Positions 411 through 11,250 of a stretch of 11,250 nucleotides of DNA are shown here, one piece after another (the first letter of the stretch is position 1; each line of letters opens with the position of its first letter). The translations under genes and the position numbers were made by a program. Source of the DNA: a virus (taxonomy: Monodnaviria > Loebvirae > Hofneiviricota > Faserviricetes > Tubulavirales > Inoviridae); the IMG/VR virus record IMGVR_UViG_2663763400_000001; one strand, 5' to 3'. The notes under the pieces are model-generated. The model was not told where the DNA came from. It saw only the letters and a program-made list of their open reading frames with translations, and made no database searches.

Positions 411-438
411 ATTTAACATAATATACATTATGCGCACC
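411..438 (-). other. dif: dif chromosome-dimer resolution site (XerC/XerD target), serving as the left prophage junction
   Basis: Plus strand reads ATTTAACATAATATACATTATGCGCACC, the exact reverse complement of the 28-bp E. coli dif sequence as I recall it (GGTGCGCATAA-TGTATA-TTATGTTAAAT). XerD arm 411-421, central region 422-427, XerC arm 428-438. Confidence 0.85.
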
Positions 439-565
439 AATGGTAAGGATGGCAGAATCTGGCGGGAATCGTTGACACTGGCCGTCAACTGGCTACTATC
501 GACAGTGATTCAAAATCATCCGTTTCTCCAAACGAATCAGAATCAAATGTCTGTCAGCAGTAAGT

Positions 566-597
566 GAACGGCCTGACCTCACCAATCAGGCCTGTTC
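566..597. repeat. Imperfect inverted repeat (about 11-bp stem, 9-nt loop) overlapping the stop codon of the 579..827 ORF
   Basis: GAACGGCCTGA (566-576), loop cctcaccaa, TCAGGCCTGTTC (586-597). The arms are complementary apart from one bulged base. No clear U-tract follows on either strand. Confidence 0.35.
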
Positions 598-788
598 ATC
601 CAGTTAGTTGGTAAATCTGTACCTGATACACGAGAATCAAACACCACTTCTTCAGTGCCATCACCATGATGCCGGATAATCTGGTAACCGGATTGCGGGT
701 TCTGGCTCTCAGCTTCATAAGCAGCCCGGAATGCTGGATCTTTAAGAAGCATCACTTTCAGCTCCTGATGTGTCATGAATTTTTCCAT
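579..788 (-). CDS. Hypothetical small protein (69 aa from ATG at 786-788; the longest ORF extends to 827, 82 aa)
   Basis: Minus-strand ORF with product MEKFMTHQELKVMLLKDPAFRAAYEAESQ... The ATG at 788 has a weak GGGG Shine-Dalgarno 6 nt upstream, while the ATG at 827 has none. No family recognised. Confidence 0.4.
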   Translation of the reverse strand: MEKFMTHQELKVMLLKDPAFRAAYEAESQNPQSGYQIIRHHGDGTEEVVFDSRVSGTDLPTNWMNRPDW

Positions 789-972
789 GATAAGCCCCGA
801 TGAATGCTGCCGCGCCGAATCAGCCATAACGCTGAAAATGGAAACTGTACGGCTTGGCCAACCCCGGACAGCAACAAAACAAGTTTTGTCACTGACCGGC
901 GTTATCTTTCAAAACAGACAGTTAACGATTTTTTGTCTGGTGTTTATGCGTGAAATTTCGTGCGTACGAAAT

Positions 973-1221
973 TCACCACCAATAAACAAACGGACGATGA
1001 CTGACCGGAAAAGCAATGCCGTCAGCATCATGACCACGCATTACCTGATTGAGAAGCCTTCTGACTTCACGACGCTCAGGCCTGGTCATCATCATATTGC
1101 GATACCAGGACGGCGATTTATCAAACCATCTGGCACAACTGGCAAAATGTGAACCTACACGACGATAAGACTTAAGGCGGCCACCGGGAAGTCGGTCACG
1201 CGCCTTATTTTTTACAGACAT
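973..1221 (-). CDS. Hypothetical small, strongly basic (Arg-rich) protein, 82 aa
   Basis: Minus-strand ORF immediately downstream of the secretin gene, preceded by an AGAGGA Shine-Dalgarno 6 nt upstream of the ATG at 1219-1221. It is co-oriented with the phage operon. The overlapping + strand ORF 775..1152 has no ribosome-binding site. Confidence 0.4.
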   Translation of the reverse strand: MSVKNKARDRLPGGRLKSYRRVGSHFASCARWFDKSPSWYRNMMMTRPERREVRRLLNQVMRGHDADGIAFPVSHRPFVYWW

Positions 1222-1309
1222 AATAAATCCTCTAAGTAACTGAATACCTAGAAGATGTCGTACTGTTCATACCCCATAAAAGTTAACGCCATAATAAAAA
1301 TCCATACAA

Positions 1310-2554
1310 TCAGTTCAGGTTGTCCCGGAACAGTTCACCGCTCCTCGCGGCGCTGCGGGGCGTCGCCCTGCTCCGGTCAACCTTTCTGACCTGAAGCATC
1401 ACCATAATATCAGTCTTGTTGCTTTCACTGGTACGGGAACCGAAGAAGCTCCAGCCGGAACTGGCCTTACTGTCTTTCTGTTCAGCAAGGCCACCAAGTA
1501 AAATAATATCACCATCTGCAAGGCTGACTTCGGTTGTTACATCACGCTTGATAAGGGTTGGCGAGTTATTGACGCCGGTTTCAGTGGTCACAAAGTTGGA
1601 AAGCTGCTGCTGAATCTTGAGATCCATTGTCCGACTTTTGATTGATGGCGTCACGTTAAACAAAACACCGCTGGAACGATATTCAACGGATTGCGTTGTC
1701 GTATTGTTATTCACCGTAACACTGCCCAGTACTGGCACATCAGAGCCGACTGAAAAAGACGCTGAGGCATTATTTTTTACCCGCAGTCGTGGCGCACTGA
1801 CAACAGTAAAACGACTGTCGGTTTTCAGCAGATTGAAAATGGCATCAATGGAGCCGGTTCGAATATTGATAAAATTATCCAGTCCGGCAGCACCAACTGA
1901 AATATTGAATTTATCAGACAGAATTTTAGCCGCTAAAAGAATGCCGGAGCCGTCAGACTGCGAGGTCTGAACCTCAAAAACATAACCAGAAACAACCACT
2001 TCATCACTCATCGTATCCAGCGAAGTGACCAGTGTTTTCAGGATGGCGATATCCTCTTTCGTACCATAATAAACCAGAATATCACCGGTTCGATTGATGT
2101 AGTTGCTTGCCCCTGATGAACCTTTTAGCGAATCGTCAGAAATCACGGCTCCACTGTTATTGAAGGAGCCTGAAACGTAGCCGCCAAGAATATCAGACAG
2201 GTAGGCAACAGAACGGTACTGAGGCGTATAAGTCCATGTATAACGTGGCTTAACCGGCTCTTTCGGCGTATAGGGCGCGATAAAATCAACACCCTTTTTC
2301 GTCCATATTCGAATGTTCATATTGCCAAGATAACGGGTTACAAATTCCCGTTCATCAATATCAGGTGTTAACCTGAATGTAATCATTCGTTCATCATTAA
2401 CAAGCTGTGGATCTAGCATATACGGGACTTTAAGCACCTCACTGTAAATAAGAGAAATAGCCTCCGGTAGCTTGACTTTATTTAATTCAAGCTCTGACCC
2501 TGCGAAAGCACATGAAGAAAATAGTAGCGTTAATGCGAGTAAAATCTTTTTCAT
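1310..2554 (-). CDS. Filamentous-phage secretin (pIV-like outer-membrane export channel), 414 aa
   Basis: N-terminal signal peptide MKKILLALTLLFSSCAFAGS. The C-terminal region has a secretin-like Gly/Ser-rich segment (DGDIILLGGLAEQKDSKASSGWSFFGSR...). The start codon overlaps the stop of the upstream Zot-like gene (TAATG at 2552-2556). Position matches gene IV of Ff phages. Confidence 0.85.
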   Translation of the reverse strand: MKKILLALTLLFSSCAFAGSELELNKVKLPEAISLIYSEVLKVPYMLDPQLVNDERMITFRLTPDIDEREFVTRYLGNMNIRIWTKKGVDFIAPYTPKEPVKPRYTWTYTPQYRSVAYLSDILGGYVSGSFNNSGAVISDDSLKGSSGASNYINRTGDILVYYGTKEDIAILKTLVTSLDTMSDEVVVSGYVFEVQTSQSDGSGILLAAKILSDKFNISVGAAGLDNFINIRTGSIDAIFNLLKTDSRFTVVSAPRLRVKNNASASFSVGSDVPVLGSVTVNNNTTTQSVEYRSSGVLFNVTPSIKSRTMDLKIQQQLSNFVTTETGVNNSPTLIKRDVTTEVSLADGDIILLGGLAEQKDSKASSGWSFFGSRTSESNKTDIMVMLQVRKVDRSRATPRSAARSGELFRDNLN

Positions 2555-3579
2555 TATTTTTTCCCCGTATAAAGCGTCACACGCTCACCATCAATAATTC
2601 CGCTCATCAACATCCCTTTGTAATTAAAACTGGATGCAGGAACGGCACGCAAAACACCGGCACCATTAACAAGAATCACAAACGCCCTGCCTTCACTGGT
2701 CATTCTCCCTGATATACGCCACTCGGTTGAAAGTGGCGGTTCAGCTGGTTCTGAGGGAGTATCTGGTGCTGGAGTAGCAGCGGAAGAACGAAACATGGCC
2801 GCATCACGTACATCTGTTGTAGTCAAATCTGGCGAGGGATCGCTTCGGCCAAACGTGCTGAAAAATGAGTAAATCAGCCAGCCTGACCCGATAAACATCA
2901 ATGGAAAAAGCACAAGAAAGAACCTGACTTTGCCAGAATTCCAGATGCTCTGGCGTTTATCTGTCTGCTTTTCATTACCGTTATTTCCTTCATAACTTTT
3001 GTAAAGTTCAAAAATATCAGGGTTATATTTATTGCGATAACTGGTGACGAGGTTGCTTTTATAGATTTTGTGGCCTGAATATACGTCAATGCAGTAATGA
3101 TTATTCAGGCCCAACGCTTTCAGCTTGCGCATCCGGTAAGTTGTTTCTATTTTGTCTTTCAGAAAGCGAGCAATATTAGAAAGTGACTGATTTACAATAA
3201 CCAAATCACAGCTAATACCCGTTTCAGGGTGCGTAAAATGACGATGTTCAGCAATAAATGATTTCTTCTCAGCCGTCATATCCTTATCGCTACCGAAGAT
3301 TCGCCATGCTTCATCAATAACAATTAAATCACCAAACTGGCAAAAGCTCCCTTCCCCACCTTTAAAAGGAAAGAAATCTGCTTTAAGCACATCATCATTA
3401 TCCACAACAATAATTTCTCCCGTTGCATCAGGATAACGTTCGGTGATTTTATCTTTTTGTAAACCATAAATGTTCGTCACAACTCTCCGGCCGCTGGTAA
3501 ATGCCGGAATAATGACATTGCAAACGGCTTCATAACTTTTTCCTGAGCCGGGTATGCCAATATATGCAGAAATAGCCAT
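2554..3579 (-). CDS. Zot/pI-like phage assembly ATPase (zonula occludens toxin family), 341 aa
   Basis: N-terminal Walker A motif (MAISAYIGIPGSGKS), a Walker-B-like hydrophobic stretch ending in DE (LIVIDEAW) and a central transmembrane segment (FFLVLFPLMFIGSGWLIYSFF). This is the architecture of Ff gene I and Zot proteins. It sits directly upstream of the secretin gene. Confidence 0.9.
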   Translation of the reverse strand: MAISAYIGIPGSGKSYEAVCNVIIPAFTSGRRVVTNIYGLQKDKITERYPDATGEIIVVDNDDVLKADFFPFKGGEGSFCQFGDLIVIDEAWRIFGSDKDMTAEKKSFIAEHRHFTHPETGISCDLVIVNQSLSNIARFLKDKIETTYRMRKLKALGLNNHYCIDVYSGHKIYKSNLVTSYRNKYNPDIFELYKSYEGNNGNEKQTDKRQSIWNSGKVRFFLVLFPLMFIGSGWLIYSFFSTFGRSDPSPDLTTTDVRDAAMFRSSAATPAPDTPSEPAEPPLSTEWRISGRMTSEGRAFVILVNGAGVLRAVPASSFNYKGMLMSGIIDGERVTLYTGKK

Positions 3580-3582
3580 AAC

Positions 3583-3870
3583 TCACCCTATAACAGGAAT
3601 ACGTCGAATAATAAAACGAGTAGCCATTGCGGAGATAATCATACTAATCCCCTGTGGTAATTTACTCAGGTTAATGAAGTACCAGAATCCGTCTGATAAA
3701 TTGGCAAACAGCGATGAGAGATTGCTTGAATCTGGCAGTAACTCAACAAGGATTTCAACGAAGCCCTGGACTACAAAATACAGCGCAAAGAATACGACGA
3801 ATTTAATAATCAATGACCGGAATACAAAACCTAACAAAGTATTTAATGCACTAATCAGAATCCCAAACAT
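3583..3870 (-). CDS. pVI-like minor coat / membrane protein, 95 aa
   Basis: Very hydrophobic small protein encoded between the pIII-like gene and the Zot-like gene, the position of gene VI in Ff phages. Strong AAGGAG Shine-Dalgarno 7 nt upstream of the ATG at 3868-3870. Confidence 0.55.
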   Translation of the reverse strand: MFGILISALNTLLGFVFRSLIIKFVVFFALYFVVQGFVEILVELLPDSSNLSSLFANLSDGFWYFINLSKLPQGISMIISAMATRFIIRRIPVIG

Positions 3871-3882
3871 AGTTGCACTCCT

Positions 3883-5595
3883 TTAGGCACTCAGAATAAT
3901 ACGGAGCGCAACAAATCCCCATATAATCAGAAATATGGTTTCTACGGCGCTTCTGTTCTGCTCAATTAACGGACAATGGGAGTCAATTCTGTACTGGTGA
4001 TTAAACACGCTGAATTCAACAACGGGGCAGGATGCTGAACGAGAGCCGATGTTAAATTCGTTTGTAAAAGGCAACAAGTTAATAATTGGCGTTAAAATAT
4101 CTCTTGCCGTTGGCGTTTCTTCAAGCTCAGGCTCTTTTACACCGGGATCTTCTCCCAAATCTATATTGCCATTATTTCCAGTGTCAGATCCTGAGTTGTT
4201 ATTAATGGTAATATCAATATTGACGTCAGCCCCTGCACTGTCAGATACAGGTGAAAGCATATCTAATAACGTTGGAGATAGCCTAAGTTCCGACATCGCA
4301 GAAGTTACTTCAGCCGGTGAAACCTCTTTAAACGGTAAGCCGTTATAATCGGCATTAACGGCAGCTTCAGACCACAGCTCGTTAATCATGTCGGCAAGAA
4401 GTGCTGGCGATACACTAACACTATCAAGATACTCCAGATAATCAATCATGGACTCAATATTTCCAGCCTCCAGTACTTCCGTCATGGCTTTATATTTGGT
4501 ATTGGTCCAGATAGTAAGCTCACTCTTTTCATCAATATCTTTTGCGGTGTAATCCTCTTTTTCAGGAACGGCACAAATCGTCGAATATCCACCATTTGAC
4601 TGATTAGTCGTTTTACAAGGCGTGTTGTGATACTGATATTGCTTTCCTGCTGTTAAATAAGCAACGCTGTAATACATGGGAAGCCCTGCTACATTTTCAT
4701 ACATGGGAATACCTGCGGGAAATGAAGATGCGGCCGGGTTGCTATACAAGTGTGTAATCTCAGGTATTTCATAAAATGAGGAAGGATAAGTAAACTTATA
4801 ATTCTGTTCAGTAAAGGATACATCTCCATTACTGTTGACAACTTTATTCGTCACAGTGCGTTCAAAATTCGTTAGTGTTTCAGTATAAGTACGCGAGTTA
4901 TAGTCATTAAGATAATTTCTGGCAATTTCAGTTGGATTATCACCATAGTAATAAATTAGCTCTTTCGAATCCTGATAATAATAAAGTGCATTATCTGGCG
5001 TGGAATATCCTGTTTCAACACCTACAACTGGAGAACCCGCATCCACATTATTACGACTAACATGAAGGATTACCGGACTTAATTCCTGTGGTTCAAAATT
5101 AACGGTTATCGTCTTACTTTCACCACTTTGACCACTGTACGTTACTTCATATAAATTATCGGAAATCTTTTTACCGTTAGTCATTACCATTACCGAGCCG
5201 TCAGATGAACTCAAAGAAGACGGAACAAAAGATGATACAGCAGCAGCAATACCCGCCCACGTTGCAACACCGCTCATTTTGTATGATGAGGCAGCAGGCA
5301 AGTATTCGGCAGCATTAGCCGCAGCGCGGCCAACAAAAACACGGGTTGCTGTAAGCTGTGATGCCGTATAAATCGCATCATTGGCAGCAAAGCGACGAAC
5401 AAGCACCCGGCCAACGACTTTAGGAATAACAGCCCGCGCAGCCACTGCTGCAATTGCTGGTACAAATGAATATGAATATCGGGGAAAGGAAACCCAGAGA
5501 AAGGAAAAAATAAAGGAATAAACCGTCAGCCTCTTAGCCCAAGAATAACGACATAAGCTGAGACGATCCCCCATAAAAGGGAACCCAATTTCCAT
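3883..5595 (-). CDS. pIII-like minor coat / host-adsorption protein (start codon uncertain; longest ORF 570 aa)
   Basis: Large ORF after the major coat gene with Gly/Ser/Asn-rich linker segments (for example NNNSGSDTGNNGNIDLGEDPGVKEPELEETP) and a C-terminal hydrophobic anchor (IFLIIWGFVALRIILSA), as in Ff pIII. The ATG at 5595 has GGAG 8 nt upstream. An alternative start at 5277 precedes a signal-peptide-like segment (MSGVATWAGIAAAVSSFV). Confidence 0.6.
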   Translation of the reverse strand: MEIGFPFMGDRLSLCRYSWAKRLTVYSFIFSFLWVSFPRYSYSFVPAIAAVAARAVIPKVVGRVLVRRFAANDAIYTASQLTATRVFVGRAAANAAEYLPAASSYKMSGVATWAGIAAAVSSFVPSSLSSSDGSVMVMTNGKKISDNLYEVTYSGQSGESKTITVNFEPQELSPVILHVSRNNVDAGSPVVGVETGYSTPDNALYYYQDSKELIYYYGDNPTEIARNYLNDYNSRTYTETLTNFERTVTNKVVNSNGDVSFTEQNYKFTYPSSFYEIPEITHLYSNPAASSFPAGIPMYENVAGLPMYYSVAYLTAGKQYQYHNTPCKTTNQSNGGYSTICAVPEKEDYTAKDIDEKSELTIWTNTKYKAMTEVLEAGNIESMIDYLEYLDSVSVSPALLADMINELWSEAAVNADYNGLPFKEVSPAEVTSAMSELRLSPTLLDMLSPVSDSAGADVNIDITINNNSGSDTGNNGNIDLGEDPGVKEPELEETPTARDILTPIINLLPFTNEFNIGSRSASCPVVEFSVFNHQYRIDSHCPLIEQNRSAVETIFLIIWGFVALRIILSA

Positions 5596-5618
5596 AATTC
5601 AATCTCCATAATAACCTC

Positions 5619-5646
5619 AAGTAAAACGGGCGATATTGCATCGCCC
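5619..5646 (-). terminator. Candidate intrinsic terminator or attenuator between the major coat gene and the pIII-like gene
   Basis: On the minus strand, GGGCGAT-GCAAT-ATCGCCC (7-bp GC-rich stem, 5628-5646) is followed by GUUUUACUU. Its position matches the known terminator downstream of gene VIII in Ff phages. Confidence 0.4.
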
Positions 5647-5659
5647 ATGAATAATGAAT

Positions 5660-5893
5660 TTATGCGGATTTAACGGTACGCAATACCCAGCGAACGCCAG
5701 CGACACCGGCATAAAGTGTTACCAGTGAAGCAGCAACGGCCATAATCGCAACCAGAACTGTACTGAAATCAATGCTGTTCGTCAGCGGCGATAAATCAAC
5801 ACCACTTGATGCCGCTCCTTCTGCAGCGAAAGTCGCGCCAGAAACAGCCATTAATGCAGGTACAGCCAGAAAACTAACGATTTTTTTAAACAT
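5660..5893 (-). CDS. Major coat protein (pVIII-like) precursor, 77 aa
   Basis: Signal peptide MFKKIVSFLAVPALMAVSGATFA, then a mature protein starting AEG... with an acidic N-terminus, a hydrophobic transmembrane core and a basic C-terminus (RWVLRTVKSA). This is the hallmark layout of inovirus major coat proteins; the M13 mature pVIII also starts AEG. GGAG ribosome-binding site 8 nt upstream. Confidence 0.8.
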   Translation of the reverse strand: MFKKIVSFLAVPALMAVSGATFAAEGAASSGVDLSPLTNSIDFSTVLVAIMAVAASLVTLYAGVAGVRWVLRTVKSA

Positions 5894-5927
5894 AACTCTA
5901 TCTCCATTACATTTTAAAGGTTCGCAT

Positions 5928-6179
5928 TCAAGCAGTACGAACCATCTTTATTACCTGTCCCACACCTACAGAAAAAAGCCAGAGCAGCAGGACAGAGCCA
6001 AAACCTAATGTCCAGTAATTTCCCATTGCAGAATAATCAATTTGATGAAATGGTTCAGAACGTACCATTATTGCCTGACATTCTTTTGCATTGTTCGCAT
6101 TACATAAATAACCTTCAATACGGTAACCATTTTCAGGAATATGATTATCAAACTGAATATCGAAACCTGATGCATCCAT
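5928..6179 (-). CDS. Small membrane protein, 83 aa, in the position of Ff minor coat proteins pVII/pIX
   Basis: ORF between the putative ssDNA-binding gene and the major coat gene. It has a C-terminal hydrophobic helix (YWTLGFGSVLLLWLFSVGVGQVI). The start is tightly spaced after the upstream stop (TGATTATG). Confidence 0.5.
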   Translation of the reverse strand: MDASGFDIQFDNHIPENGYRIEGYLCNANNAKECQAIMVRSEPFHQIDYSAMGNYWTLGFGSVLLLWLFSVGVGQVIKMVRTA

Positions 6180-6181
6180 AA

Positions 6182-6499
6182 TCAGCCTTTTATTTCAGTA
6201 ATGCCGCCATCTGATGAAATGTTATAAGTTACTCCTTCCCTCCCCTCCATTGACCAGACGCGAACATATACAGGTATCTGGACTAACTTACCGATAAAAT
6301 TATTTGCCTGATTCATTACACCGGCATTAACAAGAGCCTGAGATACACGAATAATAATCTGGTCTTGCTTAGTGCCGCCAAAACCATCAGGAATCTCTAA
6401 GCCAACACCAATTTCATTATAGTATCCCTGACCATTGACCTTATTACGCTGGCGAGCACCAAGCATTTTACCTTTTACAAAAAGACCATAATTAGACAT
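6182..6499 (-). CDS. Putative ssDNA-binding protein (gene V equivalent, by position and size), 105 aa
   Basis: Small ORF immediately downstream of the replication initiator gene, with a strong AAGGAG Shine-Dalgarno that overlaps the initiator stop codon. The assignment is positional; I could not confirm sequence similarity to Ff gV by eye. Confidence 0.45.
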   Translation of the reverse strand: MSNYGLFVKGKMLGARQRNKVNGQGYYNEIGVGLEIPDGFGGTKQDQIIIRVSQALVNAGVMNQANNFIGKLVQIPVYVRVWSMEGREGVTYNISSDGGITEIKG

Positions 6500-6510
6500 A
6501 TCACTCTCCT

Positions 6511-7563
6511 TTAATGCCAGTTACTGGCATGTGAAATACGGTTATAATCGAAAATTAAACCTTTCTCATAAACCCATGATGGAATTTTGGCTGGTTTGGC
6601 TTCAAGAGTACGAACCAACGGAACAACGTTATTAGAATCCGGTGACTCACAATAAAAGTTAATATCTATTCCGAAAGAAAGTAATTCTTTACGGTGTCGG
6701 TAGAATGTAGGTTTCGGTAACATCTCTTTCATGTTCGCGCCCTGCTTCCACAATAAATATGTAGACTGTATTTTTCTTGGGAGATTAATTATTTTTTCAT
6801 CAGTTAATATAGTATTTTGATTCATTTCTATTCTCCCTACATAGTCAGAGAATAATTTATTGGGCGTCTCAATATTCCAGCTATTACCAAGCGTAAGATT
6901 CAAATCAATTAATTCAGTTGTTCTTAATGTTAATTCAATGCGTAATTTATCTTTTGACCAGTCCAGTAAACCAGCTTTAACGAATTCGTCTGCCATCTGG
7001 TGCCCTTTTTTGCCAGATGTATGCTCATCATATTTTGAATAAAATTTCAGGCTCCAACGACGGGAGTTTTTCCCTAAGTAAACAGTGCCACCTTTACCAC
7101 AGGCGCGACCGTGGCGAGTTTTAGCTTTAAATTCTGCGGCATATAACCATGCGCGGACATTTTCTAATGTTGACAATGAATACATGTAATTGATATCGAT
7201 GCGCGAGATCTTAAATTGCCCTTCCATGACCTGCCGATAGGATGGTAGATCATGAGGAATATGCAGTAATGCCAATATTCTGGCGTAAGCTGTTAACACC
7301 AACCCTTGCAAATCGTCGGAACCGATAACAGAGTGACCTTGCAAAAACTTTGATGGATTACCGTCAATGTAGAGATGTGTTGCCCGACCTTCACCATCAG
7401 ATCCAACAGACCTTACTTTCATTGTGGACTCATGCGAACCGCGAACGGTCAACCGTTTTACTGTTTCCCACTCCACTGCACCGTCAGCATCGACGCTGAC
7501 GACACTACCAGCCGGTAACGGTCGGTGTGTGCAAGGCAGGATTCCGGTAAACCAGTCGATCAT
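6511..7563 (-). CDS. Rolling-circle replication initiation protein (pII / RstA-like), 350 aa
   Basis: First gene of the minus-strand phage operon, about 350 aa with N-terminus MIDWFTGILP... Size, position and divergent arrangement with an HTH repressor match the replication initiators of integrating filamentous phages. Confidence 0.75.
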   Translation of the reverse strand: MIDWFTGILPCTHRPLPAGSVVSVDADGAVEWETVKRLTVRGSHESTMKVRSVGSDGEGRATHLYIDGNPSKFLQGHSVIGSDDLQGLVLTAYARILALLHIPHDLPSYRQVMEGQFKISRIDINYMYSLSTLENVRAWLYAAEFKAKTRHGRACGKGGTVYLGKNSRRWSLKFYSKYDEHTSGKKGHQMADEFVKAGLLDWSKDKLRIELTLRTTELIDLNLTLGNSWNIETPNKLFSDYVGRIEMNQNTILTDEKIINLPRKIQSTYLLWKQGANMKEMLPKPTFYRHRKELLSFGIDINFYCESPDSNNVVPLVRTLEAKPAKIPSWVYEKGLIFDYNRISHASNWH

Positions 7564-7734
7564 AAGTAGTCACACCCATCAAAATATGTGTCAATAGTCA
7601 TTTGTGAGCAGATTGAATGGTCACAATGTAATATGCTCAGTTCTGACAGTCAATACATTTGCAATGTTTAAATTGTCAGAAATGAGCATCAAATCTAACT
7701 ATTGAAAAACCACTGTTAAGATGGAGCCAAGTAG
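7564..7734. promoter_or_regulatory. Divergent intergenic control region between the replication gene and the repressor gene (candidate promoters and operators)
   Basis: Non-coding 171-bp AT-rich spacer. The minus strand has a candidate sigma70 promoter toward the replication gene (-35 TTGACT at 7653-7648, 17-bp spacer, -10 TACATT at 7630-7625). The + strand has a TG-TAATAT element at 7627-7634. Repeated GTCAATA (7590-7596, 7649-7655) and TGTCA/TGACA motifs are present. Confidence 0.5.
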
Positions 7735-8181
7735 ATGGGCAACAATGAGCATGAAGTTATGGCGGACAAACAGAGAGCAGAACGTATCAAAAAGGTAATT
7801 CTGGAACACTCGACTTATGAAGAACTGGCCGAGAAGACTGGCATTAGCGTGAGTACGCTGGTCAGGATAGCGTCCGGCAAAACTGAACCTAAATTCAGTG
7901 ACATCATTCAGATAGCTAAAATTACGGGTGCAGACTTAAACACCTTAGCTTATGGCTATGCTCTTGATGTTAAAGAAGAAGCTACCGAGCGGAAGCTAAT
8001 CACTTCTGCGGATGGATATACTGATGAAGAAACCACTAACGCACATAATTTCATCGTGTGGAACATCAGGACACTGGAAAAACAAGATATTCTGGCACTC
8101 GCAAGGCAGGTTTCTGCCTTAAGTTCATACACTTACAGTACTAAAATGTTTATGAAAAAAGCGGTGTCTGGAGAAGAGTAA
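7735..8181 (+). CDS. XRE-family helix-turn-helix transcriptional regulator (phage repressor, RstR-like), 148 aa
   Basis: Contains a Cro/C1-type HTH (YEELAEKTGISVSTLVRIASGKT...IAKITGADLNTLAYG). Transcribed divergently from the replication initiator. GGAG ribosome-binding site 8 nt upstream of the ATG at 7735. Confidence 0.8.
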   Translation: MGNNEHEVMADKQRAERIKKVILEHSTYEELAEKTGISVSTLVRIASGKTEPKFSDIIQIAKITGADLNTLAYGYALDVKEEATERKLITSADGYTDEETTNAHNFIVWNIRTLEKQDILALARQVSALSSYTYSTKMFMKKAVSGEE

Positions 8182-8210
8182 AAGGATTAACAGTCTCAGG
8201 AATGAGACAA

Positions 8211-8246
8211 ACGTGCAGTATTACCAACACTGCACGTTCTTTATTG
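8211..8246 (+). terminator. Candidate intrinsic terminator downstream of the repressor gene
   Basis: ACGTGCAGT (8211-8219), 9-nt loop, ACTGCACGT (8229-8237), followed by TCTTTATTG. Confidence 0.4.
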
Positions 8247-8280
8247 TGCGAATTTTGAACAGTGAAAAAGGATCAAAAGG

Positions 8281-8703
8281 ATGAGTAGAAATAACGAAAC
8301 AAGCGGCGTTGAACTGGTTGTCGTGGGCGTATTTGCTTTCTGTCTGGCAGTTGTTGCCTGGCTAATGAAAACTTTCGATGTTGAATGGCAAACAGCGCTG
8401 GAAACTGCGCCTGGCCTGATAGTGTGGCTGCTTGTTGTCGGGGCGGGGATCTTTTTCGGGATCAAAATGGAAACAGGCCTTGTTCGCTGGGGTGCTCCAC
8501 TGGCGATCGCCCTTCTGATTCCGGTATTCAAACCAATTCTTAAGGAAGCTGCCGGAGTTCGTGAAACGGGTGGGCTGGTTTTCGATGATATGGTTTCGTG
8601 GTACGGAACTGGCTGGGGAATGTCGTTGATGTTTTTCGGAATTCTTATCATCGGATACGGGATGCTTTATTGGTGGCACAGAAGAAATTCATATTACTGG
8701 TAA
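8281..8703 (+). CDS. Hypothetical polytopic inner-membrane protein, 140 aa (cargo gene 1)
   Basis: About four hydrophobic helices (VELVVVGVFAFCLAVVAWLM, GLIVWLLVVGAGIFFGI, APLAIALLIPVF, MSLMFFGILIIGYGMLYWW). AAGGA ribosome-binding site 8 nt upstream. The antisense ORFs 8241..8651 and 8362..8679 are Pro/Ser/Thr/Arg-rich, typical of the reverse strand of a hydrophobic gene. Confidence 0.6.
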   Translation: MSRNNETSGVELVVVGVFAFCLAVVAWLMKTFDVEWQTALETAPGLIVWLLVVGAGIFFGIKMETGLVRWGAPLAIALLIPVFKPILKEAAGVRETGGLVFDDMVSWYGTGWGMSLMFFGILIIGYGMLYWWHRRNSYYW

Positions 8704-8731
8704 TCAATAAAACGTAGAAGAGAGGAAATAT

Positions 8732-9007
8732 ATGAAACTGAATCCTGAGAAATACAATAGAAATATCACCCTGCTATGTCCTGTGTGCGGAAATACAGAG
8801 ATGGAACACGAGGAAGAGTCTGAAGTCGTCAGATGTGTAGGCTGCGGGAAAGAATTCACTAATGATGAGTTAATCCAAGAAAACGGGGTGAGTATTGACG
8901 CCCATGTGGATGAGATAAAAGAAGAGTTAACAAAAGATATTCAAAAACAGTTTAACGACATGCTCAAAAAGGCATTTAAAGGAAGTAAAAATATAAGGAT
9001 TAAATAA
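8732..9007 (+). CDS. Hypothetical zinc-ribbon protein, 91 aa (cargo gene 2)
   Basis: CPVCG and CVGCG motifs 17 residues apart (CxxC-x17-CxxC), followed by an acidic/Lys-rich tail. AGAGGA Shine-Dalgarno upstream of the ATG at 8732. AT-rich codon usage. Confidence 0.6.
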   Translation: MKLNPEKYNRNITLLCPVCGNTEMEHEEESEVVRCVGCGKEFTNDELIQENGVSIDAHVDEIKEELTKDIQKQFNDMLKKAFKGSKNIRIK

Positions 9008-9486
9008 TGACAACAAGTGATGCCATCGCTTTAGCTGCGCTTGTAGTATCGATTTACACTATCATATCATCAGAAGTGAAGTCGAGAAAAAGTGATAGAG
9101 AACAAAAGGTTATAAAGGATGAGCAAGACAGATTACGTAAGTTGCTTCTGGAAAAAGAAACAAAGTCAGCAATTAATGAGATGAAGGCTGAGCTTGGTGC
9201 CCGCCTCGTAAAAATAGCCAAAAACAACTATAGACTCAAGATATTTAATAGAGGGAAAGTTGAGGCTAAAAATATAGAGATTCATTTCCCTGATAACGAT
9301 GGCAATGAATATCTTTCCATGCATGATGTAGAAGATAAATTTCCATATGAAGTATTACACCCGCAACATGGGATTGAAATTTTAGCGGGACTAAGCTTTG
9401 GAAGCAAAACTAAATACCGAATAAAACTCATATGGGATGACAATTATAAAAAAAGGAATGAAGAGGAGTTTTTCATTTCTATATAA
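9007..9486 (+). CDS. Hypothetical membrane-anchored protein with a charged coiled-coil-like segment, 159 aa (cargo gene 3)
   Basis: The start overlaps the upstream stop as TAATG (9005-9009). N-terminal hydrophobic anchor (AIALAALVVSIYTIIS), then a highly charged K/E/R-rich helical segment, then a C-terminal region rich in aromatic and beta-type residues. Visibly AT-rich. Confidence 0.6.
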   Translation: MTTSDAIALAALVVSIYTIISSEVKSRKSDREQKVIKDEQDRLRKLLLEKETKSAINEMKAELGARLVKIAKNNYRLKIFNRGKVEAKNIEIHFPDNDGNEYLSMHDVEDKFPYEVLHPQHGIEILAGLSFGSKTKYRIKLIWDDNYKKRNEEEFFISI

Positions 9487-9516
9487 ATTGGTTCGCACAA
9501 TGACGTTATGCTAAAG

Positions 9517-9553
9517 AGGCCGCTGCGGGATACGATTTTCGCAGCGGCCTTTT
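9517..9553 (+). terminator. Candidate intrinsic terminator of the + strand cargo operon, directly abutting the right junction site
   Basis: AGGCCGCTGCG (9517-9527), 12-nt loop, CGCAGCGGCCT (9540-9550), followed by TTT. It is flanked upstream by AAAG, so it could act in both directions. Confidence 0.5.
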
Positions 9554-9583
9554 CAACATAACGAGTCGTACATTATGCGCACC
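9552..9583 (-). other. Hybrid dif-like site forming the right prophage junction: dif XerC arm plus a phage-derived expanded central region and XerD-like arm
   Basis: In dif orientation it reads GGTGCGCATAA (perfect XerC arm, 9583-9573), then TGTACGACTCG (11 bp instead of the 6-bp TGTATA), then TTATGTTGAAA (9 of 11 identical to the dif XerD arm TTATGTTAAAT). It shares 15 contiguous nt with the true dif at 424-438. Confidence 0.65.
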
Positions 9584-9661
9584 AACATAAACCAAGGGAG
9601 AATCCAGTCGTTGGCGGTTCATGATTGTTCTGCTCATTAACAACGACCAAAACCCCATATC

Positions 9662-10984
9662 TTACTTAATACCGTATTCTCGGCTTAACCGACCGTGCAA
9701 CCTCAACACATTGGTTTCAACTGCCGTCACCACGTTCTCCGGAAAATCTGTCGGTAATGAAGTCTTCACGTTATCCAGTGCTGCCGGAATCATTCTGGCA
9801 AAGTCACTCAGGATTTCATGCATCTGCACTTCCGGGAATTTCAGCACCTTTGCTGTCGCCAGAAAATGTCGCGGATAAATTTTATCGATTGCCGTTTTTT
9901 TGCCTTTGGATGCGTTAAGCCCCATTGCCAGTTTGAGATCGCTGATGTGTATTCCCGTACCGCCAAGGACCGGAAATGCCGAAATGATGTCATAAAATGG
10001 TGTGAGCCGATAACTGCCGCCAGCCTGAATAAATACGGAGAAGTTTTTTGCATGGCCATCTGTTGCGCCAATCAACCACTGGAAGACCTGAAACTTCATA
10101 AAATCATAGCGATCTTTCAGCGCCTCGCTGGACCCCATCAAAAAAGCCATAATTTGCGCGATACCGGGGCCTCCATCTGATTCATATTTCACCGATGAAG
10201 GTAAACCGAATGTCTGGCACATATCCTCCTGTGGCAAGCGAAGTAAAACCGTTCGCTCAGTATTCCAACGCCTGTCAAAACGTTTGACCGCTAACGCGCG
10301 CACCCTTCCCGCTTTAATGATTTCTGCGTCCGGAACATTCAACCCGAGTTCTTTCGCCAGCAGCAAACAGTAATACTCATTATCAACGCTTTGGCTAAGA
10401 TCGAGCGTCGCATTGGGCTGTCTGATTTCGCCAATCGGCAATTTGATAATGTGCGTCGTTGGCGTTATTCCCTTCGGAATGCACCAGTCATTGCCTATTC
10501 TGAGCAGCGCAGTCTTCTCCTGTGCGCCAGCAACCGAGATGCGAAAGTCATTTTCTTCTCTAATCATGCCTAACGGGATATCTGCTTTATAAGCCGTTAA
10601 TACTTCTTCAAGTCTGGCTTCAGTAAGCTTTTCCCATGCCATTATCGGACACATTACGGTTTCATCTTCGGGGATTAACGTCACGGCACCAACGCTGTCT
10701 CGCCCTATTTCTGACAATAAATCAAACGGTTGTCTGGATTTAGCATGATAACGTTTAACGATCCGGTCACGTACAATCGGGCTATCGGGTAACAGGTTAT
10801 CGAAGAAGTTAAATACGGCATCAGAGGTGATATTCCTCCTCTGCAATGGCAGCGAAAGTGACAACGGTCTGGCATAACGGCTGGCTAACCACTCAGGTGC
10901 ATACTTAAAGGTGTGCGCGCCGTTGGCTAACTTCGTTAACTCGCCTACCCGCTGGTTGTTCATCCAAGTGACTAGTTTAGGCAT
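9662..10984 (-). CDS. hipA: HipA serine/threonine kinase toxin of the HipBA type II toxin-antitoxin system, 440 aa
   Basis: From the ATG at 10982-10984 the product MPKLVTWMNNQRVGELTKLANGAHTFKYAPEWLASRYARPLSLSLPLQR... matches E. coli HipA essentially along its length, from memory. The start overlaps the hipB stop by 1 nt. The longer ORF reaching 11041 is an upstream in-frame extension into hipB. Confidence 0.95.
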   Translation of the reverse strand: MPKLVTWMNNQRVGELTKLANGAHTFKYAPEWLASRYARPLSLSLPLQRRNITSDAVFNFFDNLLPDSPIVRDRIVKRYHAKSRQPFDLLSEIGRDSVGAVTLIPEDETVMCPIMAWEKLTEARLEEVLTAYKADIPLGMIREENDFRISVAGAQEKTALLRIGNDWCIPKGITPTTHIIKLPIGEIRQPNATLDLSQSVDNEYYCLLLAKELGLNVPDAEIIKAGRVRALAVKRFDRRWNTERTVLLRLPQEDMCQTFGLPSSVKYESDGGPGIAQIMAFLMGSSEALKDRYDFMKFQVFQWLIGATDGHAKNFSVFIQAGGSYRLTPFYDIISAFPVLGGTGIHISDLKLAMGLNASKGKKTAIDKIYPRHFLATAKVLKFPEVQMHEILSDFARMIPAALDNVKTSLPTDFPENVVTAVETNVLRLHGRLSREYGIK

Positions 10985-11250
10985 CACCACTCCAGATCTT
11001 GCTGTTCTGTTGCTTCTGGCGAGGCATTTTTTGCGTCGCATAGCGTCATTGAGAGTTCAAGCGACTGTAAAATCTTAAAAAATGTCGTGAGCGAGGTATT
11101 GTTAGGATTGTTTTCGAAATTGGAAATTGTCGCCTGCTTAATGCCGATTTTTTTCGCCAACTCGCTCTGCGTCCAGCCGTTTTGCTGGCGAACCAGTTTC
11201 ATTGCATTCGCCAATTGCATTGGGCTATAGATCTTCTGAAAGCTCATCAT
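10984..11250 (-). CDS. hipB: HipB antitoxin / HTH transcriptional repressor, 88 aa
   Basis: Product MMSFQKIYSPMQLANAMKLVRQQNGWTQSELAKKIGIKQATISNFENN... matches E. coli HipB (XRE-family HTH), from memory. The start codon lies at the window edge (11248-11250); the promoter and operators are beyond the window. Confidence 0.95.
   Translation of the reverse strand: MMSFQKIYSPMQLANAMKLVRQQNGWTQSELAKKIGIKQATISNFENNPNNTSLTTFFKILQSLELSMTLCDAKNASPEATEQQDLEW

Follow-up and report, generated by a model that had tools for sequence, protein, structure and literature searches.

The window analysed here, a stretch of 11,250 nucleotides from the IMG/VR virus record IMGVR_UViG_2663763400_000001, is a piece of Escherichia coli chromosome with a single 9145-bp filamentous prophage (Inoviridae) at dif. 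Between the phage repressor and the attachment site attP, three genes, here called genes 1, 2 and 3, follow one another on the plus strand (Table 1). A first-pass annotation, made from the sequence alone, had described them as a three-gene cargo cassette. Their coordinates and their own ribosome-binding sites (a purine-rich Shine-Dalgarno-like stretch upstream of each gene) are confirmed, and all three appear to evolve under purifying selection, but the cassette is not confirmed, as gene 1 is kept where genes 2 and 3 are replaced. Gene 1 belongs to the phage backbone and genes 2-3 are a separate module in a swappable slot; taken as a whole, this anatomy is hardly in doubt. The function that we favour for the module, with a probability of about 0.45, is that of a membrane-associated defence against phages or other mobile genetic elements, which is a tentative reading of sequence comparisons.

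A backbone gene followed by an exchangeable slot

The homology between the window and its sister prophages spans the repressor and gene 1, ends at 8703-8708 and restarts at 9486-9488. The GC content of the slot delimited in this way is 0.35-0.37, versus 0.40-0.47 in the surroundings. Six different sets of genes occupy the slot among the E. coli prophages inspected, one of them being the pair of the window, a zinc-ribbon gene and the gene of a 159-aa protein. The other five are a 264-aa DpnII/MboI-type PD-(D/E)XK nuclease (matching Aga_Helical-REase of PADLOC, 1e-34) with a DUF6953 protein; an AbiJ_NTD4 + DUF7014 protein; a 369-aa transmembrane (TM) protein in UTI89, which weakly matches the gene 3 profile (1.4e-5); a 155-aa homologue of gene 3 without the zinc-ribbon gene, together with a 123-aa gene; and, on the opposite strand, a ThsB-type TIR protein (PADLOC, 4.5e-48) with PDC-M50A (6.7e-32). 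Mutual exclusion with recognised defence-type genes in a single slot is the pattern by which candidate defence hot spots are recognised, and genes 2-3 display it. About 15 E. coli chromosomes have the allele devoid of the zinc ribbon (identity of 99% or more): the zinc-ribbon gene has shrunk to 16 nt, the gene 3 homologue is intact and under constraint (ratio of nonsynonymous to synonymous substitution rates, dN/dS, of 0.09), and a different gene, g4, lies downstream. The g4 family (123-166 aa, with the motif MKN..Y...FPY...ATEKML) is absent from the window and occurs 3' of gene 3 in 9 of 59 loci. It has no Pfam match, and one member marginally matches PDC-S57 of PADLOC (E = 0.004). In a Pantoea inovirus, g4 stands alone directly after gene 1.

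Of 5426 complete E. coli genomes, 128 contain gene 1, invariably behind regulator genes, and 28 contain genes 2-3, all chromosomal and all with gene 1 immediately upstream. Some of these 28 genomes carry the genes in arrays, in up to 16 places; in E. coli EC5502 (NZ_CP092647.1), a single chromosome has 16 places that match gene 1 and the pair, implying that the prophage forms one very long tandem array or several arrays there. Gene 1 holds the same position in every prophage inspected, across differing cargo and structural modules. In a Yersinia enterocolitica phage, it follows the regulators despite an Ff/IKe-like structural module and different regulators; it also does so in a Pantoea phage with other cargo, and some IMG/VR genomes pair the lysogeny side containing gene 1 with a UP-phi-type Zot. 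On comparative grounds, gene 1 is a conserved lysogeny-side backbone gene of the dif-integrating inoviruses of Enterobacterales (CUS-phi/UP-phi type), the open reading frames (ORFs) of Ypf-phi at this place being by implication different (PMC4266046). Its homologues extend down to 50% identity. The protein has four hydrophobic segments, as the first-pass annotation had described, with a charge distribution consistent with an N-in/C-in topology, and no match in Pfam, NCBIfam or PADLOC. A role in superinfection exclusion or immunity is only a guess from the position of the gene.

The location of accessory cargo beside the phage attachment site, which had been proposed for all three genes, is borne out for genes 2-3, which adjoin attP. 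The region as such is not new. Variable accessory ORFs of unknown function near dif have already been published for CUS-phi, Ypf-phi and UP-phi, and they differ from phage to phage: YPO2271/2272 in Ypf-phi, orf1/orf1a in CUS-1, and novel genes of its own in UP-phi (PMC4266046; PMC7307601). These phages share with the prophage of the window the phage type, the integration at dif and a repressor divergent from the replication gene and followed by ORFs up to the attachment site, but the pair formed by a zinc ribbon and a TM-anchored sandwich is a further allele, undescribed in those papers. Toxin-antitoxin (TA) modules are also documented as accessory cargo of the inoviruses Pf4 and Pf6 (PMC12328805).

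The defence hot spots of P2/P4 satellites and prophages likewise hold mutually exclusive small systems at a fixed position of the backbone. The slot shares with them, and with the PfiAT and KKP cargo of Pf inoviruses, this fixed position, the mutual exclusion of unrelated small systems and the presence of several recognisable defence genes. It differs in its backbone, here a Xer-integrating inovirus of Enterobacterales, and in its position between a membrane gene and a folded attP. An accessory module of defence or TA-like type in a hot spot of a temperate element is a well-known kind of thing.

The gene 2-3 pair and its distribution

Genes 2 and 3 are plainly real genes under purifying selection. 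Their homologues range from 35 to 99% identity, and the dN/dS values of 0.02-0.14 of both genes against seven relatives include decayed prophages left with the pair only. For protein 2 a family does exist, whereas the first-pass annotation had recognised none: it scores above the curated cutoff of NCBIfam NF047912 (ECs_2282 family putative zinc-binding protein; 65.2 bits vs a cutoff of 37, E = 3.6e-18), its residues 12-65 matching positions 1-60 of the 60 in the profile; RefSeq gives it the same family name, and each of the three proteins has a PHROG family of unknown function. The name of NF047912 records the CxxC motif alone, without a function, and its 60-position model omits the C-terminal helix and tail, two parts which are conserved among the members linked to gene 3. 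No mention of the ECs_2282 family was found in the literature searched. The statement that none of the three proteins corresponds to a core inovirus function agrees with the lack of any Pfam or PHROG match to pI-pVIII, secretin, replication or single-stranded DNA (ssDNA)-binding proteins.

Several details of protein 2 had to be corrected. Its zinc motif is CxxC-x15-CxxC (C16, C19, C35, C38), not x17, and the tail described as acidic is basic: residues 15-60, in the middle, have a net charge of -10, and the tail AFKGSKNIRIK, invariant in the alignment, has one of +4. The AlphaFold2 model (mean predicted local distance difference test score, pLDDT, of 78) consists of a generic three-strand zinc ribbon, a long helix (52-83) and the basic tail, which is disordered. 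Protein 3 was correctly described as a membrane-anchored coiled coil with a C-terminal globular region. Its model (mean pLDDT 79) comprises an extended helix (3-58) followed by a beta-sandwich of seven strands (63-158), and its one N-terminal hydrophobic helix runs on into the coiled coil. As the residues after the TM segment are basic, the positive-inside rule would place the sandwich in the cytoplasm.

A profile search with protein 3 retrieved 1308 cluster representatives at 50% identity, 483 of them at E<=1e-10. The best 150 clusters are mostly of about 145-175 aa, the shorter ones being fragments, and include no larger fusion. In a scan of species-representative genomes, protein 3 was found at 41 loci in Gamma-, Beta- and Alphaproteobacteria and some metagenome-assembled genomes (MAGs). 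At 40 of these 41 loci and in 5 of 5 viral contigs, gene 3 is directly preceded by a zinc-ribbon gene that overlaps or abuts it, and a tail of the AFKGSKNIRIK type ends 45 of 50 partner proteins. At the sole genome locus without a zinc ribbon (L049), its place 7 nt upstream of gene 3 is taken by a DUF4238 protein (Pfam 6.4e-33; DUF4238-Pers of PADLOC, which lists this family as a defence gene), whose C-terminal extension past the Pfam domain has the sequence LFKGESQNIRV, which closely resembles the tail of protein 2. Since this tail is found in 45 of 50 partners and also on the DUF4238 protein, it may connect the partner to protein 3; the sequences suggest that the shared tail is what links the two.

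Gene 1 accompanies the pair at 3 of the 41 loci and is absent from 38, so that the co-occurrence outside inovirus contexts envisaged earlier for all three genes holds for the pair, which is found on plasmids and in regions resembling integrative and conjugative elements (ICEs), and fails for gene 1. The copies in Enterobacterales were considered as candidates for a location outside inoviruses and rejected, as they are decayed prophages at dif or at the Xer sites of plasmids. In Lonsdalea quercina (L016, 9324-10552), a mini-prophage of 1.2 kb comprises only dif, about 160 nt of the left end of the phage, genes 2-3 and the attP hairpin; it may have been left behind by deletion, or may be an element resembling a satellite or miniphage. 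Just 5' of the pair, dif or pieces of the phage are found in Pragia, Pectobacterium, Pluralibacter and Serratia, and in Klebsiella and E. coli plasmids a Xer site and an ISNCY transposase are followed by the pair, a further small gene and a hairpin. The left deletion end-points of these remnants differ (window positions 8383, 8536, 8715-8732 and 8756), from which it follows that the pair was kept several times independently.

The distant homologues (35-43% identity) have no dif nearby and lie on other types of element: ICE-like regions with DUF932/DUF2958 beside an AAA_13 ATPase, an island with an integrase and MobA, Cupriavidus plasmids in which the pair adjoins parAB/rep, and an inovirus of Phage_GPA type in which the pair again directly follows a small regulator, without gene 1. 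A homologue is carried by 93 plasmids, 85 of them predicted to be conjugative. At loci L022-L030, the same pair, with equal tblastn E-values (6e-38 or 1e-37) and near-identical profile scores, adjoins DUF932/DUF2958 and an 878-aa AAA_13 ATPase in Hydrogenophaga, Variovorax, Comamonadaceae, Stutzerimonas stutzeri and MAGs assigned to Gammaproteobacteria, Rhizobiaceae and 'Bacteroidetes', a pattern that points to a broad-host-range ICE or plasmid. A gene for an SOS-response-associated peptidase (SRAP/YedK-type) lies directly 3' of gene 3 on a Cupriavidus plasmid (L057, 5459-6100), and a fragment of such a gene lies 3' of gene 3 on a Serratia plasmid (L058, 5667-5864); this may be a coincidence or reflect a shared plasmid region.

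Possible functions of the pair

The interpretation of genes 2-3 as a defence module relies on the conservation of the pair across Proteobacteria, its mobility apart from gene 1, the purifying selection on it, the defence-type alleles of the slot and the defence genes among its neighbours; the architecture, a membrane anchor carrying a protein-binding sandwich with no catalytic fold seen in the models of either protein, also counts in its favour, as do the tail motif of the partners and the replacement of the zinc ribbon by a DUF4238 protein at L049. Of the roles put forward by the first-pass annotation (defence, abortive infection, exclusion, TA), all are still live for genes 2-3, and they gain weight from the presence of ThsB-TIR, AbiJ-like and nuclease genes in this slot of sister prophages. 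Regarding the neighbours, at individual loci the pair adjoins SIR2-nSTAND, type I restriction-modification and AAA_13 genes, AIPR and an SMODS/S_4TM cyclic oligonucleotide-based antiphage signalling system (CBASS), or a CBASS cyclase with E2; the AAA_13 ATPase of the ICE-like regions is a further neighbour of this type. In Klebsiella plasmids the pair lies among TacAT and ParDE modules, with a NACHT protein nearby. A census of 144 neighbours at 25 loci includes PD-Lambda-3, Old, AriA/GajA/PtuA-type ATPases, a CBASS cyclase with a 2TM effector, HEPN and RnlB.

If this interpretation is right, protein 3 would be anchored in the inner membrane by its N-terminal helix, with the stalk and the sandwich in the cytoplasm, and protein 2 would dock on it by means of the long helix and of the invariant basic strand at its C-terminus. 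The zinc ribbon could then sense an invading element at the inner membrane face, upon which the complex would either block entry or assembly or perturb the membrane, leading to abortive infection. The lysogen, and hence the prophage, would thereby be protected from other phages and mobile elements. The topology, the docking, the sensing role and the output of the module are all put forward here as conjectures.

Several observations weigh against a defensive function. Many of the 144 neighbours are plain mobile-element genes (integrases, resolvases, relaxases, MobA), and the association with defence genes is a qualitative score drawn from aggregate counts without a genomic background. Proteins 2-3 do not match all the components of any described defence system in PADLOC-DB v2.0.0; the matches of protein 2 are at domain level only and mere candidates (PDC-S64, 4.3e-7, on the zinc-ribbon part; PDC-M14A, 2e-3, a model that a plasmid homologue matches at 1.9e-8), and protein 3 has no Pfam or NCBIfam match and 0 PADLOC matches at E<=1. 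With a single TM helix and no effector domain in protein 3, the killing or blocking step is speculative. Finally, a scan for sigma-70-like promoters on the plus strand from 7500 to 9700 found none, leaving the gene 2-3 unit without a detected promoter. Literature searches for a defence role of this phage region found nothing.

The main rival, which appears distinctly less probable, is a TA-like addiction module stabilising its carrier, in which protein 3 would be a membrane toxin and protein 2 its neutraliser. Such a module could act by abortive infection too, so that the two readings overlap. Genes 2 and 3 are small, co-directional and coupled by an overlap of one base (TAATG at 9005-9009), the smaller acidic protein coming first; the pair is found on the mostly conjugative plasmids mentioned above, sometimes by parAB/rep or among TacAT/ParDE modules, and it was kept under purifying selection in at least four independently decayed dif prophages (the 1.2-kb Lonsdalea element, Pragia, Pectobacterium and Pluralibacter). 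Nevertheless, the allele without zinc ribbon retains an intact and constrained gene 3 homologue in its E. coli chromosomes, which may speak against such a pairing, with g4 as a conceivable substitute partner, and no known family of type II toxins or antitoxins was recognised: protein 3 matches no toxin family, protein 2 has no antitoxin domain of the helix-turn-helix (HTH) or ribbon-helix-helix type in NCBIfam, Pfam or PADLOC, and it matches the MqsA family only marginally (E = 1e-3, 18.9 bits vs a cutoff of 61.8), its match to the YgiT finger being also below the threshold (14.8 bits vs 20.2). The likeness to MqsRA-type modules consists of a small overlapping two-gene operon with one four-cysteine zinc-ribbon partner, carried by mobile elements; the differences are the missing HTH, the other cysteine spacing, a partner that is a membrane-anchored sandwich instead of an RNase and the apparent tolerance of an allele without zinc ribbon. 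A function in the establishment of elements that enter the cell as ssDNA, the pair acting as an anti-defence or entry factor at the inner membrane face instead of as a host defence, is unlikelier still. It would suit the range of carriers (inoviruses of at least three backbone types, conjugative plasmids, ICE-like regions and integrase+MobA islands), all of which transfer as ssDNA through the envelope, and the weak match of protein 2 to the Lar restriction-alleviation family (E = 9e-4, 19.9 bits vs a cutoff of 28.6). Yet this similarity is of a level common to any zinc ribbon, the genes lie on the repressor side of the phage, away from early or leading genes, the alternative occupants of the slot are defence-type rather than anti-defence genes, and the pair is kept in prophage remnants no longer able to transfer.

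The original notion of one system made up of all three genes, for instance a Rex-like four-TM protein with a cytosolic sensor expressed from the repressor operon, has very little left in its favour. The genes share one orientation and lie close together (28 nt from gene 1 to gene 2), their co-transcription in this phage is probable, as no promoter was found between them, and gene 1 is immediately upstream in 28 of the 28 E. coli genomes with genes 2-3. The cI-rexA-rexB operon of phage lambda also places a four-TM protein in an immunity operon, an analogy of position without homology: proteins 1-3 have no match of RexA/RexB type in Pfam, PADLOC or PHROG. The distribution of the genes already largely refutes this model, since gene 1 occurs alongside each of the five alternative, unrelated cargo sets and is combined with yet other cargo in phages of Yersinia and Pantoea, and the pair dispenses with it at most genome loci, on plasmids and in the Phage_GPA-type inovirus. 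It seems no less improbable that genes 2-3 serve the life cycle of the phage, for example in the control of Xer integration at dif, in replication or in secretion. The pair does adjoin attP and, in Enterobacterales, travels with the attP hairpin even in remnants and plasmids, but the slot is wholly replaced by unrelated genes in near-identical prophages that are still at dif, some of them in tandem, distant homologues have no dif-like site nearby, and the hairpin is equally tied to other cargo such as the AbiJ-like gene of plasmid pEND_Eco18005.

A broader conjecture, which we consider rather unlikely, is that the gene 3 family is a general membrane docking platform for the tails of its partners. 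In that case, the sandwich would capture a basic strand, AF+G[SN]K.[IF][KR][IFV][KR], of interchangeable partners, usually a zinc ribbon and once DUF4238. The family might then represent an undescribed class of membrane immunity spread mainly by elements that cross the envelope as ssDNA (filamentous phages, conjugative plasmids and ICEs), and perhaps directed against them.

If genes 2-3 do act in defence or exclusion, they would belong to a large unannotated family, of about 1,300 clusters at 50% identity, with a membrane component that has no Pfam model, and the combination of a zinc ribbon with a single-pass beta-sandwich anchor would be an architecture found in no described system. Independently of this condition, small filamentous prophages that integrate by Xer in E. 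coli and related bacteria, so far discussed chiefly for their effects on virulence, have a defined cargo slot shuffling defence-type genes (TIR, AbiJ-like, nuclease). Such a slot would lend them a selective value to the host that would explain their persistence, including that of remnants reduced to the cargo, and its fixed borders make it a practical site for mining further candidate systems. As far as searched, the split between a backbone gene and a defined slot, the defence-type repertoire of this slot, how large the gene 3 family is and which hosts it spans, the pair outside inoviruses and the shared tail motif have not been described.

The prophage, its attachment site and related elements

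The window matches strain FDAARGOS_1303 at 100% identity across 8281-9486; in this strain, copies of the prophage unit follow one another in tandem every 9145 bp. The minus strand has the complete inovirus set of secretin, Zot/pI, DUF2523, pIII-like, coat and ssDNA-binding proteins and replication protein II/X, all of which are annotated in the FDAARGOS_1303 prophage. The backbone is near-identical to that of UTI89 and, to judge from its sequence, the prophage is a member of the CUS-1/Ypf-phi group described in PMC4266046. Searches of a phage collection with the DNA of 8281-9486 and with each protein gave no match, the element being represented by prophages and IMG/VR contigs only, and a search of the window against Rfam matched no family. 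Next to the prophage, hipA is annotated as a truncated pseudogene in E. coli M15 (L002, 4820-5179), in which it differs from the window and other strains. A contig labelled "Candidatus Nanosynbacter MAG" (L014, JARKOR010000214.1) carries the E. coli hipA region and the lysogeny side of the prophage at about 95% identity to the window, and is almost certainly a misbinned contig of Enterobacteriaceae.

Table 1. Features of the window, and positions of two associated gene families at other loci
Feature	Position	Strand	Basis or remarks
Chromosomal dif, re-formed at the left prophage junction	411-438	-	28/28 exact match to GGTGCGCATAATGTATATTATGTTAAAT; 0 expected by chance
CUS-phi/Ypf-phi-type inovirus prophage, one 9145-bp unit	439-9583		Unit length equal to the tandem period in FDAARGOS_1303
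Phage repressor (HTH_3/XRE, RstR-like), first gene of the lysogeny side	7735-8181	+	Pfam HTH_3, E = 1.6e-9; phrog_3557 transcriptional regulator, E = 4e-74
Structured spacer between repressor and gene 1	8182-8280	+	Terminator-like hairpin at ~8210-8238, then UCUUUAUU
Gene 1, 140-aa four-TM inner-membrane protein	8281-8703	+	ORF; phrog_4174, E = 3e-85
Exchangeable cargo slot, from the gene 1 stop codon to attP	8704-9486	+	Edges of homology to sister prophages
Gene 2, 91-aa soluble zinc-ribbon protein	8732-9007	+	ORF; NCBIfam NF047912
Gene 3, 159 aa, with N-terminal TM anchor, coiled-coil stalk and immunoglobulin-like beta-sandwich	9007-9486	+	ORF; structure model
Phage attP, 98 nt	9488-9585	+	DNA fold; search for dif-like sites; junction identical in the tandem array
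attP dif-like site 1	9490-9516	+	Site search
GC-rich hairpin tip of attP	9517-9550		Stem 9517-9527/9540-9550
attP dif-like site 2	9551-9583	- (inverse orientation)	Site search
Chromosomal hipA, right flank, then hipB	9662-11041	-	hipA/hipB annotation in the homologous regions of strains 998 and UTI89
g4 at other loci	L056 6511-6882; L006 8517-8900; L068 3548-3919; L064 8464-8964; L062 9441-9836
ISNCY-family transposase at other loci	L005-L008 6203-7603; L013 6321-7718; L056 4103-5500; L058 3215-4612; L055 1435-2824

The repressor has a weak match to the phage RstR family of NCBIfam (E = 8e-4, 19.7 bits), below the cutoff of 80. The spacer that follows it folds as RNA into two hairpins, the second terminator-like (-28.7 kcal/mol, z = -4.55, 0 of 200 shuffles equally stable). 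The plus-strand lysogeny unit, described earlier as convergent with the structural operon, is divergent from the replication/structural operon at 7563/7735, and the two converge only where the phage is circular or in tandem, facing each other across attP. The terminator formerly assigned to the end of the cargo is the tip of the 98-nt attP hairpin, although it may terminate transcription in addition. The terminator scan overlooked this tip and the hairpin of the spacer, as their loops are longer than its limit.

As ssDNA, attP folds into a forked hairpin (-28.2 kcal/mol, z = -6.33, 0 of 200 shuffles equally stable). With two inverted dif-like sites and dif regenerated at one junction, its predicted layout is that of a folded attP of CTX-phi type. 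Both have inverted dif-like sites around a hairpin, a forked stem with XerC- and XerD-like arms, an intact dif regenerated on one side and tandem arrays. They differ in that the site sequences of Vibrio cholerae are unrelated, and single-stranded integration is here a possibility.

The first site and hairpin of attP (window 9486-9560) recur at about 91-96% identity on many E. coli and Klebsiella plasmids, 477 places being plasmid-borne. These copies (L055, 4001-4071; L005-L008, 8899-8972; L056, ~6883-6950) lie directly 3' of a cargo gene, either an AbiJ-like gene of the STM4504 family or a zinc ribbon with a gene 3 homologue and g4, and have a degraded second site; they look like remnants of Xer-integrated filamentous elements. 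In five independent contexts, an ISNCY-family transposase of about 465 aa lies between dif or the plasmid Xer site and the cargo genes (Table 1), which is consistent with the published preference of IS1202-family elements for XerCD sites (PMC10132070). At the other end of the prophage, between dif and the secretin gene, two 82-aa ORFs without Pfam match lie on the minus strand (579-827 and 973-1221). This region is a second accessory region of these phages, the counterpart of YPO2280a/2281 (PMC4266046), and a fragment of the first of the two ORFs is kept in the Serratia remnant (L013, 4212-4302).

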